A stretch of DNA of 64,000 bases, from NCBI RefSeq assembly GCF_053078305.1, contig NZ_CP166875.1. One strand, written 5' to 3'. This document shows, in pieces, positions 39,396-39,908 of this stretch (within the stretch, counting starts at the first letter, position 1; each line of letters starts with the position of its first letter). The position numbers and the translations under genes were made by a program. The notes under the pieces are model-generated. The model was not told the origin of the DNA, made no database searches, and saw only the letters and a program-made list of their open reading frames with translations. The stretch is from a plasmid.

Positions 39396-39908
39396 ATGAA
39401 CATAAGTGTGGAAGATTTGTTTCCGGAGTCATTTCAACGAATTAAAGAAGAAGAAGAAGCGAACAGGCCTGATCCTAACTGGTTTGCACATTTACCGCCT
39501 GAAAAAATCAATGCGTATATGTCCAAGTATCCTTTCAAATCCTTTGATGATATTCCTCTGGACAACAGTGGGTTGCAATACCCTTCACTACAGGAACTGG
39601 AGTTTTATTTTCCCCCGGCGGCCCTGGCTGCTAATTGCCATCAACTTCCTGAGAGAATGAGACAAAAGCCTGTGGTCACGATGATTAATGGGTTAACCCT
39701 GTTAAGGTCGCTTGGCGTTCAGGCTTTCAATATCGATCCACGCCGATGGCACAAAATTAAAACCTATTTAAGTCAAGGAACGATTGAATATCCACAAATG
39801 TCCGAAGACGGGAAAGTAATTATAGATGGCAGGCATAGAATACTACTTATTATGCAGATTTATAAAGTAACTGATGTTCCCGTTTTTTTTCTGAAAGGAA
39901 TAAGCTGA
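39396..39908 (+). CDS. hypothetical protein with ParB-like DGRHR motif
   Basis: Start taken at MNISVEDLFPESFQRIKEEEE; VIIDGRHRILL near C-terminus. Confidence 0.4.
   Translation: MNISVEDLFPESFQRIKEEEEANRPDPNWFAHLPPEKINAYMSKYPFKSFDDIPLDNSGLQYPSLQELEFYFPPAALAANCHQLPERMRQKPVVTMINGLTLLRSLGVQAFNIDPRRWHKIKTYLSQGTIEYPQMSEDGKVIIDGRHRILLIMQIYKVTDVPVFFLKGIS

Follow-up and report, generated by a model that had tools for sequence, protein, structure and literature searches.

The window analysed here is a stretch of 64,000 nucleotides from an F-type plasmid (RefSeq assembly GCF_053078305.1, contig NZ_CP166875.1). At 39396-39908, on the plus strand, it carries an open reading frame (ORF) that encodes a protein of 170 residues followed by a stop codon. 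RefSeq annotates the same 513-bp coding sequence in identical plasmids as WP_001027529.1, "hypothetical protein", and the ORF is labelled hypothetical in every annotated record inspected. A first-pass annotation, made from the letters of the sequence, had placed the ORF between the colicin B gene and stbB and had called it AT-rich. It is indeed flanked by cba (colicin B; 37420-38982, minus strand, with the Pfam domains Cloacin and Colicin) and by stbB (40059-40412, minus strand, Plasmid_stab_B), with stbA/parM beyond the latter, and it is AT-rich in relative terms: its GC content is 40.8%, where the whole window has 48.8% and the leading region next to it 57-60%. By its predicted structure, the 170-residue protein belongs to the ParB/sulfiredoxin (Srx) superfamily, as a stand-alone member of minimal size and high divergence.

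The start codon, ATG at 39396, is preceded at a distance of 5 nt by AAGGGAGGA (39382-39390, plus strand), a Shine-Dalgarno-like element read from the sequence. Nucleotide homology to the nearest relatives, L003 and L027 (L numbers denote the loci of relatives), starts at 39381-39383, so it takes in AAGGGAGGA. An in-frame ATG at 39372, which would give a protein of 178 residues, was rejected; because homology with the relatives begins only at 39381, the ATG at 39396 is the conserved start. A perfect TATAAT hexamer, which lies 50 nt before the ATG (39340-39345, plus strand) and lacks a good -35 element, is a possible -10 element of the ORF. It was not called by the consensus promoter scan, and no promoter or terminator was called for the ORF. 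The dN/dS ratio is 0.15 (Nei-Gojobori method, against the 85%-identical homologue of L003). With its good ribosome-binding site and this ratio, the ORF of the first-pass annotation is a real gene under purifying selection.

The protein is made of two parts. The N-terminal extension, residues 1-87 (39396-39656, plus strand), is acidic, with an isoelectric point (pI) of 4.5, and is delimited by alignments, pI, conservation and the structural model. Residues 88-170 (39657-39905, plus strand) form a ParB/Srx-like core in the predicted structure; this part is basic, with a pI of 10.1. The only cysteine of the protein is Cys81. The core contains the stretch VIIDGRHRILL (residues 141-151, 39816-39848), in which the first-pass annotation had seen a likeness to the catalytic motif of the ParB/sulfiredoxin fold. 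Its centre, Asp144-Gly145-Arg146-His147-Arg148 (DGRHR; 39825-39839, plus strand), is the invariant motif of the family in an alignment of 41 members. A second element, Pro115-Arg116-Arg117-Trp118 (PxRW; 39738-39749, plus strand), lies at the N-terminus of helix 115-126 and is marked by its conservation and by an alignment to SbnI.

The family is rare and is confined to conjugative plasmids and integrative and conjugative elements (ICEs) of Gamma- and Betaproteobacteria. In 5.8 billion clusters, a word-indexed search returned 26 proteins, all at least 56% identical or fragments, and an exhaustive HMMER profile search of 1.84 billion representatives returned 40 at E≤1e-3. A second profile search, in the set of 5.8 billion, found 49 clusters, with proteins from Vibrio, Pseudomonas and Ralstonia among them. 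With one genome per species, 100,044 species yielded five loci, in Hafnia, Enterobacter, Cedecea, Caballeronia and Burkholderia. PLSDB contains more than 100 plasmids with the identical gene. Of 5,426 complete Escherichia coli genomes, 130 (~2%) carry it, and 130 of its 131 copies there are on plasmids. No model of Pfam, NCBIfam, PHROGs or PADLOC matches the 170-residue protein, and NCBIfam gives no meaningful match for any of the 41 members. Hits of the single protein to the profiles Pox_A31 (E 0.02) and DsbC (E 0.08) were judged to be noise. In a literature search the accession WP_001027529 was found in no paper, and the ORF is not discussed in papers on ColBM plasmids.

Conservation was counted in the 41-sequence family alignment, which has a mean column identity of ~30%. 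Gly145, Arg146, His147 and Arg148 are invariant (41/41) and Asp144 is found in 39 of the 41 sequences. Outside the motif, Trp118 (40/41), Arg117 (38/41), Pro133 (40/41), Gly128 (38/41), Phe70 (40/41) and Pro115 (35/41) are near-invariant. Judged from this alignment, DGRHR is the most constrained element of the family and no chance occurrence, because GRHR is invariant in 41 members at such a low mean identity. The N-terminal extension has conserved positions of its own (Pro54, Pro63 and Phe70), which are specific to the family. Many relatives have an extra C-terminal helix, which is absent from the E. coli clade.

The structure predicted by AlphaFold2 with the 41-sequence alignment has a predicted local distance difference test score (pLDDT) of 92.8 and a predicted TM-score (pTM) of 0.84, and all five models score at least 89. 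It supersedes a first AlphaFold2 run with 12 close homologues, which was mediocre (pLDDT 65). The predicted core is built by strand 90-98, helix 99-111, helix 115-126, strand 129-131, strand 142-144, helix 146-156 and strand 160-168, and in the model it follows the strand-helix-helix-strand-strand-helix-strand order of ParB N domains and of sulfiredoxin. The N-terminal extension is modelled in one compact domain with the core, mostly at pLDDT 87-98 beyond the first 10 residues (73). In the model, DGRHR lies where strand 142-144 meets helix 146-156, which is the position of GERR in ParB and of GCHR in sulfiredoxin. The G-x-x-R phosphate-binding motif of the ParB/Srx superfamily is present, with Gly145 and Arg148 in all 41 members.

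Among known structures, the model matches best the pNOB8-like ParB-N, with a structural match score of 5.7, followed by Arabidopsis sulfiredoxin (5.3; 73 residues at 2.6 Å), PadC (5.2), human sulfiredoxin (4.9), the free serine kinase SerK (4.6), SbnI (4.5; 20% identity), Osa (4.4), KorB (3.5) and Atu1540 (3.1). For a model with a core of ~75 residues such scores are moderate, as expected, and they are mutually consistent. The Foldseek probability is 0.96 for the pNOB8-like ParB-N and 0.85 for Osa.

Hints of this fold at the level of sequence are found as well, none of them significant alone. PHROG 1033, "ParB-like partition protein", is matched weakly by 6 of the 41 members (best E 0.0041), and GmrSD_N by one of them (E 0.0073, below the cut-off). 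The best match of a core-only profile against the Protein Data Bank (PDB) is SbnI, in a 60-residue alignment that is not significant (E 0.28) and is in register, with PxRW on EPSR, DGRHR on DGVHR and VPV on IPV. The full-length profile, searched against PDB sequences, hit only HSF4, topoisomerase I and a pilus protein, all spurious. In hhalign comparisons with the single sequences of human sulfiredoxin and of a 652-residue ParB-like protein of the window, and with an alignment of the Osa family, DGRHR falls on GGCHR, on GGRR and on DGMTR, respectively, with probabilities below 3%. These alignments agree with the fold and are not counted as evidence of it. The hhalign probability of 66% against an SbnI fragment was discounted, the fragment having been picked post hoc from the core-profile match.

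The reading of the protein as a ParB/Srx fold with a nucleotide pocket is held with high confidence, and the fold assignment as such is unsurprising to a specialist. It bears out the ParB/sulfiredoxin reading of the first-pass annotation as to predicted fold and motif position. Of the two checks proposed with it, structure prediction gives a ParB/Srx fold, and the profile search for ParBc (PF02195) goes the other way, with no match to the protein even at E≤10 nor to any of the 41 members. Any of the activities suggested in that annotation, an accessory nuclease, an NTP-binding switch or a defence-related protein, may apply. The ParB/Srx superfamily and solitary ParB/Srx proteins on plasmids are already known; the new element is a family absent from Pfam, NCBIfam, PHROGs and PADLOC.

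Comparison with the known members of the superfamily narrows what this protein may do. It is far shorter than canonical ParB, and it lacks the helix-turn-helix (HTH), the C-terminal dimerisation domain and box III (ENxxR) of the latter. The HTH and the dimerisation domain are considered absent because in the model the protein ends right after the last core strand, and no HTH family was matched. No cognate ParA is present in most of its contexts, and its neighbours in the window are cba and stbB. Its acidic N-terminal extension is an addition without counterpart in the ParB N domains (pNOB8-like ParB-N 5k5d, Spo0J, KorB, PadC). Sulfiredoxins, which are eukaryotic or cyanobacterial redox enzymes and not products of plasmid genes such as this one, have a catalytic cysteine in F-G-G-C-H-R (1xw4, 1yzs, 6ky4). 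This cysteine is replaced by the invariant Arg146, so the 170-residue protein cannot be a sulfinic-acid reductase.

The free serine kinases SbnI and SerK (5ujd, 5x0b) share with the protein an aligned DGxHR motif. They differ from it by a second, C-terminal domain and by a catalytic base, for which the family has no conserved acidic residue at the aligned position (located by the known residue numbering of SbnI). They are also encoded in biosynthetic operons and not on mobile elements. The PxRW element, which aligns with "DPAK" of sulfiredoxin and with "EPSR" of SbnI, would be a second nucleotide-contacting element. GmrS/DUF262 (PF03235) and DndB, with its DGQHR, belong to nucleic-acid conflict systems and carry (I/V)-D-G-x-x-R on a ParB/Srx fold (PMC4619093), as does the protein described here. 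The present family differs from GmrS/DUF262 in having DGRHR instead of DGQQR, in lacking the QR and FxxxN motifs at conserved positions, in its much smaller size and in the absence of an HNH/DUF1524 partner in the window.

The G-x-x-R motif binds nucleotide phosphates in sulfiredoxin, and the same pocket holds the ATPase and DNase activities of Osa; GmrS has an equivalent motif, (I/V)DGQQR, which is predicted to act likewise (PMC4619093; PMC5512222). Osa, a fertility-inhibition factor, is a plasmid-borne, ATP-regulated DNase that inhibits the transfer of rival plasmids (PMC5696584; PMC4619093). Osa/FiwA belongs to the IncW plasmids pSa and R388 (PDB 4ovb and 4o7k, PF22162), and it is, like the 170-residue protein, a stand-alone ParB/Srx protein on a conjugative plasmid. 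The two share the fold, as far as the model tells, and a similar size, an N-terminal extension, a plasmid location and the lack of a link to partition. They differ in the motif, which has Arg-His where Osa has Met-Thr. PF22162, which is carried by all retrieved Osa homologues, gives no match for the query family. The 170-residue protein may by analogy work like Osa and is no member of the Osa family.

The genomic settings of the relatives point to mobile elements, in which the gene is found near replication genes, in maintenance regions or in transfer regions. All loci with enough flanking sequence to judge show plasmid or conjugative genes (rep, par, relaxase or type IV secretion system, T4SS); a few are short or uninformative. 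In F-like plasmids the homologue lies downstream of IncFII repA (L002, L003 and L027, with L024 nearby), and in some relatives DUF2913 is found beside it. In Vibrio an orphan Dam-type methylase precedes it, with a TraI_2 relaxase and AcaB close by, and in Pseudomonas plasmids it is the last gene of an operon that is divergent from mobC-relaxase genes. Ralstonia plasmids have a ParA-family ATPase gene, then the gene of a 362-364-residue protein and then the homologue. This 362-364-residue protein, which has no Pfam match, is encoded directly upstream of the homologue in three loci (L009, 5328-6416; L030, 6808-7902; L031, 6808-7902) and is found in Ralstonia, Caballeronia and Burkholderia, with 46% identity between genera and a gap of 2 bp to the ORF in L030. 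It is a candidate lineage-specific partner of the ORF homologue.

One chromosomal homologue (L019, 6001-6519; GCA_053570785.1) lies inside the T4SS cluster of an ICE of mating pair formation type G (MPF-G), on the opposite strand. Its neighbours are a Plasmid_RAQPRD gene on one side and the DtrJ-like and TraG/T4CP genes on the other, and the coupling protein is two genes away. This is an unusual location for cargo and perhaps a hint of a role linked to conjugation. In an F-like plasmid a 250-residue HNH-domain protein is encoded 4 bp after the homologue (L002, 8523-9275), an arrangement that recalls GmrS and GmrD. In a Providencia plasmid the homologue is followed by an ATP-binding protein and a UvrD-like helicase, a Gabija-like pair (L013, 3699-6847). 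Each of these two settings was seen in one context. All-against-all BLAST of the flanking ORFs of 17 loci found no universal neighbour, only lineage-specific recurrent ones: a ResD-like recombinase, DUF2913, an Rpn-like protein and, in Betaproteobacteria, the 362-residue protein. The common denominator of the relatives is a conjugative plasmid or an ICE. What these computations show directly is the gene, its family and conservation, the predicted fold, the placement of the motif and the genomic distribution.

From this material we infer nucleotide binding, catalysis and a biological role as follows. The basic core of ~80 residues would hold the phosphates of a nucleoside triphosphate (NTP) via DGRHR at the strand-to-helix junction, the site of the nucleotide phosphates in ParB, sulfiredoxin, Osa, SerK and SbnI, and PxRW, which caps the preceding helix in the model, would join DGRHR in NTP binding. 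In the model the acidic N-terminal extension of ~85 residues packs onto the core. The bound NTP may be used for hydrolysis, for phosphate transfer or for gating a nuclease-type activity on DNA, and the protein would be a solitary accessory factor of the plasmid, with a part in establishment or in conflict between elements. Its closest functional analogue would be Osa/FiwA of the IncW plasmids. Taken together, a gene for a ParB/Srx-fold, NTP-binding, solitary plasmid accessory factor is the best explanation, and its probability is put at about 60%.

Several findings weigh against this explanation. No curated profile (ParB_N, Osa PF22162, GmrSD_N, NCBIfam or PADLOC) reaches its threshold, and profile-profile comparison with the Osa family is not significant (hhalign probability 1.3-1.7%). 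Box III of ParB, the cysteine of sulfiredoxin and the glutamate base of SbnI/SerK are not conserved in the family, so the chemistry of the family cannot be assigned; its members could just as well be phosphotransferases or nucleotide sensors without catalysis. The family has no conserved partner gene and no fixed position with respect to the transfer origin (oriT), which makes any biological role a weak inference. An Osa-like role in conflict or establishment specifically, which is an analogy, is less likely than not. Somewhat more speculative is the proposal that the unrecognised family, with this protein as its founder, consists of minimal ParB/Srx enzymes that serve conjugative elements (IncF-like, IncP-like and Rep3 plasmids, MPF-G ICEs) as a solitary weapon or shield. 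Such an enzyme, either an Osa-like NTP-gated nuclease or a nucleotide-modifying one, would block the transfer of rivals or disarm the defence of the recipient early after entry, and its N-terminal extension would be autoinhibitory or would recognise the target.

A function in defence or counter-defence proper is the rival that survives best, and it is unlikely. The protein would be the NTPase half of a split GmrSD-like module (ParB/Srx and HNH), or else an early anti-restriction or establishment factor. The HNH protein 4 bp after the homologue of L002, the single weak match to GmrSD_N, the Gabija-like ATPase and UvrD pair that follows the homologue of L013 and the Dam-type methylase that precedes the one of Vibrio all speak for it. 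So does the position in the window. The ORF is oriented as the leading-region genes and lies within roughly the first 30 ORFs from oriT, and the zone near oriT is reported to be enriched in anti-defence genes (PMC11541004). Against this, PADLOC gives no match, the HNH neighbour is found in one context only and the copy of the window has no nuclease partner. The family keeps no fixed position relative to oriT, and in the window the opposite-strand stbAB genes separate the ORF from the leading-region block. This block, on the plus strand, encodes an N6/N4 methylase, an antirestriction protein, DUF3560, a single-stranded DNA-binding protein (SSB), the 652-residue ParB-like protein, PsiB, PsiA and DUF932. 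The oriT itself should, by analogy with F, lie ~18 kb from the ORF, in the ~320-bp gap between an SLT-domain (lytic transglycosylase) gene (57356-57958, minus strand) and traM (from 58279).

Quite unlikely is a role as accessory factor of a ResD-like tyrosine recombinase in multimer resolution, in which case colicin BM would have split an ancestral pair of genes in the window. Homologous recombinases (45-51% identity) are found directly beside ORF homologues in three independent lineages, either as ORF and then recombinase with a gap of 87 bp (L012, L024, L028) or as recombinase and then ORF with a gap of 38 bp (L017, L018), and in an E. albertii plasmid the recombinase comes after ccdAB, the place of resD in F. 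In the window, a ResD-like tyrosine recombinase gene (34308-35243, plus strand) is separated from the ORF by nothing but the AT-rich colicin M/B (ColBM) block at 35.3-39.0 kb, which suggests that ColBM was inserted into an older recombinase-ORF pair. This adjacency is the only recurrent link of the family, and it is absent in most contexts: no recombinase is near the ORF in L002, L003/L027, L004, L006, L013, L015, L019 and L030, and L009 has only an unrelated 577-residue integrase on the opposite strand. The gene order is inverted between lineages, and both genes are typical of the replication-proximal maintenance region, so the linkage may be positional. No tyrosine resolvase is known to us to depend on a ParB/Srx partner, which also counts against this role.

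A phosphotransferase, that is, a small-molecule or protein kinase like SerK, SbnI or sulfiredoxin that acts on a metabolite or on a host or rival protein and not on DNA, is improbable. The structural matches to these three enzymes stand beside the replacement of the sulfiredoxin cysteine by Arg146, the lack of a conserved acidic residue where the SbnI/SerK base would align and the absence of the C-terminal domain of SerK/SbnI, and a metabolic kinase has no obvious place on conjugative elements.

The least likely role for this plasmid, and a very improbable one, is that of a partition accessory or NTP switch, which would work with StbA/StbB (ParM/ParR), or with ParA systems elsewhere, as a PadC-like CTP/ATP switch or adaptor. 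The first-pass annotation had implied a link to the stbAB partition locus. In favour of such a role, only 150 bp lie between the ORF and stbB in the window, the structural matches include PadC and ParB N domains and, in Ralstonia plasmids, a ParA-family ATPase gene precedes the homologue on the same strand. Against it, StbAB belongs to the actin-type (type II) partition systems, which use no ParB, and the protein has no HTH, dimerisation domain or box III. The ORF converges on stbB, so the two are not in one operon. The stbB end is matched by 2,205 plasmids, of which 112 also cover the ORF; in these ~2,200 plasmids stbAB homology begins at 40044 of the window, and the ORF is found in ~112-130 of them. 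stbAB is not a neighbour of the relatives with 85%, 79% and 63% identity, and the copies of Burkholderia and Caballeronia have an SRAP gene upstream and no ParA. Because homology breaks at 40044 and few stbAB plasmids have the ORF, the adjacency is a module junction and not a functional unit, the ORF is no component of StbAB (ParMR), and the implied link does not hold.

That the motif is a chance product of an ORF that is spurious, or that decays where two inserted modules have left it, is already refuted by the conservation of the gene: it is indeed an isolated island of ~520 bp between unrelated modules, with no consensus promoter or terminator called, but its dN/dS is 0.15, it is intact and identical in more than 100 plasmids, its family extends across several genera down to ~23% identity with the motif invariant, and the fold is predicted with confidence.

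In the window, homology to the gene of the relatives spans 39381-39900 only, and the ORF is a ~520-bp remnant of the IncFII-type backbone between the colicin BM and stbAB modules. The IncFII-type repA of the plasmid is at 5947-6816. On the colicin side, 71 bp (39247-39317) are ~90-92% identical to DNA upstream of cea in small ColE1-type plasmids, where the counterpart lies under a "hypothetical protein" divergent from cea. By this match the colicin-derived segment reaches to ~65 bp from the ribosome-binding site of the ORF. A LexA-box-like sequence, CTGGTTTTATGTACAG, is present at 39015-39030, just upstream of cba. Co-regulation of the ORF with cba by the SOS response is unsupported, the LexA-like box adjoining cba at ~365 bp from the ORF. 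On the other side, the 150-bp gap between the ORF and stbB contains an inverted repeat with perfect 9-bp arms, CTTTACCCC / GGGGTAAAG, around a 7-nt loop (40016-40040), which directly precedes 40044, where homology to the other stbAB plasmids begins. This repeat may be a terminator shared by the two convergent genes; no T-run adjoins it, and it was not called by the terminator scan.

ParB/Srx domains recur in plasmids as nucleotide-gated switches and nucleases, such as the CTP-dependent ParB clamps, KorB, HerB/YfjB and Osa. The ORF adds to them a minimal family that has no Pfam entry, is visible only by structure prediction and, in E. coli, lies on ColBM-type IncF virulence plasmids. If it is an Osa-like factor of conflict or establishment, it would be a new determinant of which plasmids coexist or spread, and its ~170 residues would offer a compact model for the reuse of the ParB/Srx nucleotide pocket; if it has no phenotype, the ORF is simply a further remnant of the backbone. 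In both cases, the result corrects the view of the ORF as part of the stbAB partition locus.

The 652-residue protein of the leading region, which has ParB_N and HTH_ParB domains, is encoded at 50603-52561 (plus strand), between ssb and psiB, so the window contains two unrelated genes of ParB/Srx fold. It corresponds in type and position to YfjB/HerB. YfjB, renamed HerB in a preprint of July 2026, is a ParB-like protein that binds CTP and, after transfer, reprograms transcription in the host (PMC13370423). Elsewhere in the window, two Tn3-family transposase genes (11864-14902 and 29393-32359) bracket cargo at 15.5-28 kb, which encodes a radical SAM protein, alpha/beta hydrolases, a fusion of Hydrolase_4 and Methyltransf_20, a CTP_transf_1 cytidylyltransferase-family protein and an EamA transporter, and which looks like a cluster for lipid or small-molecule modification.

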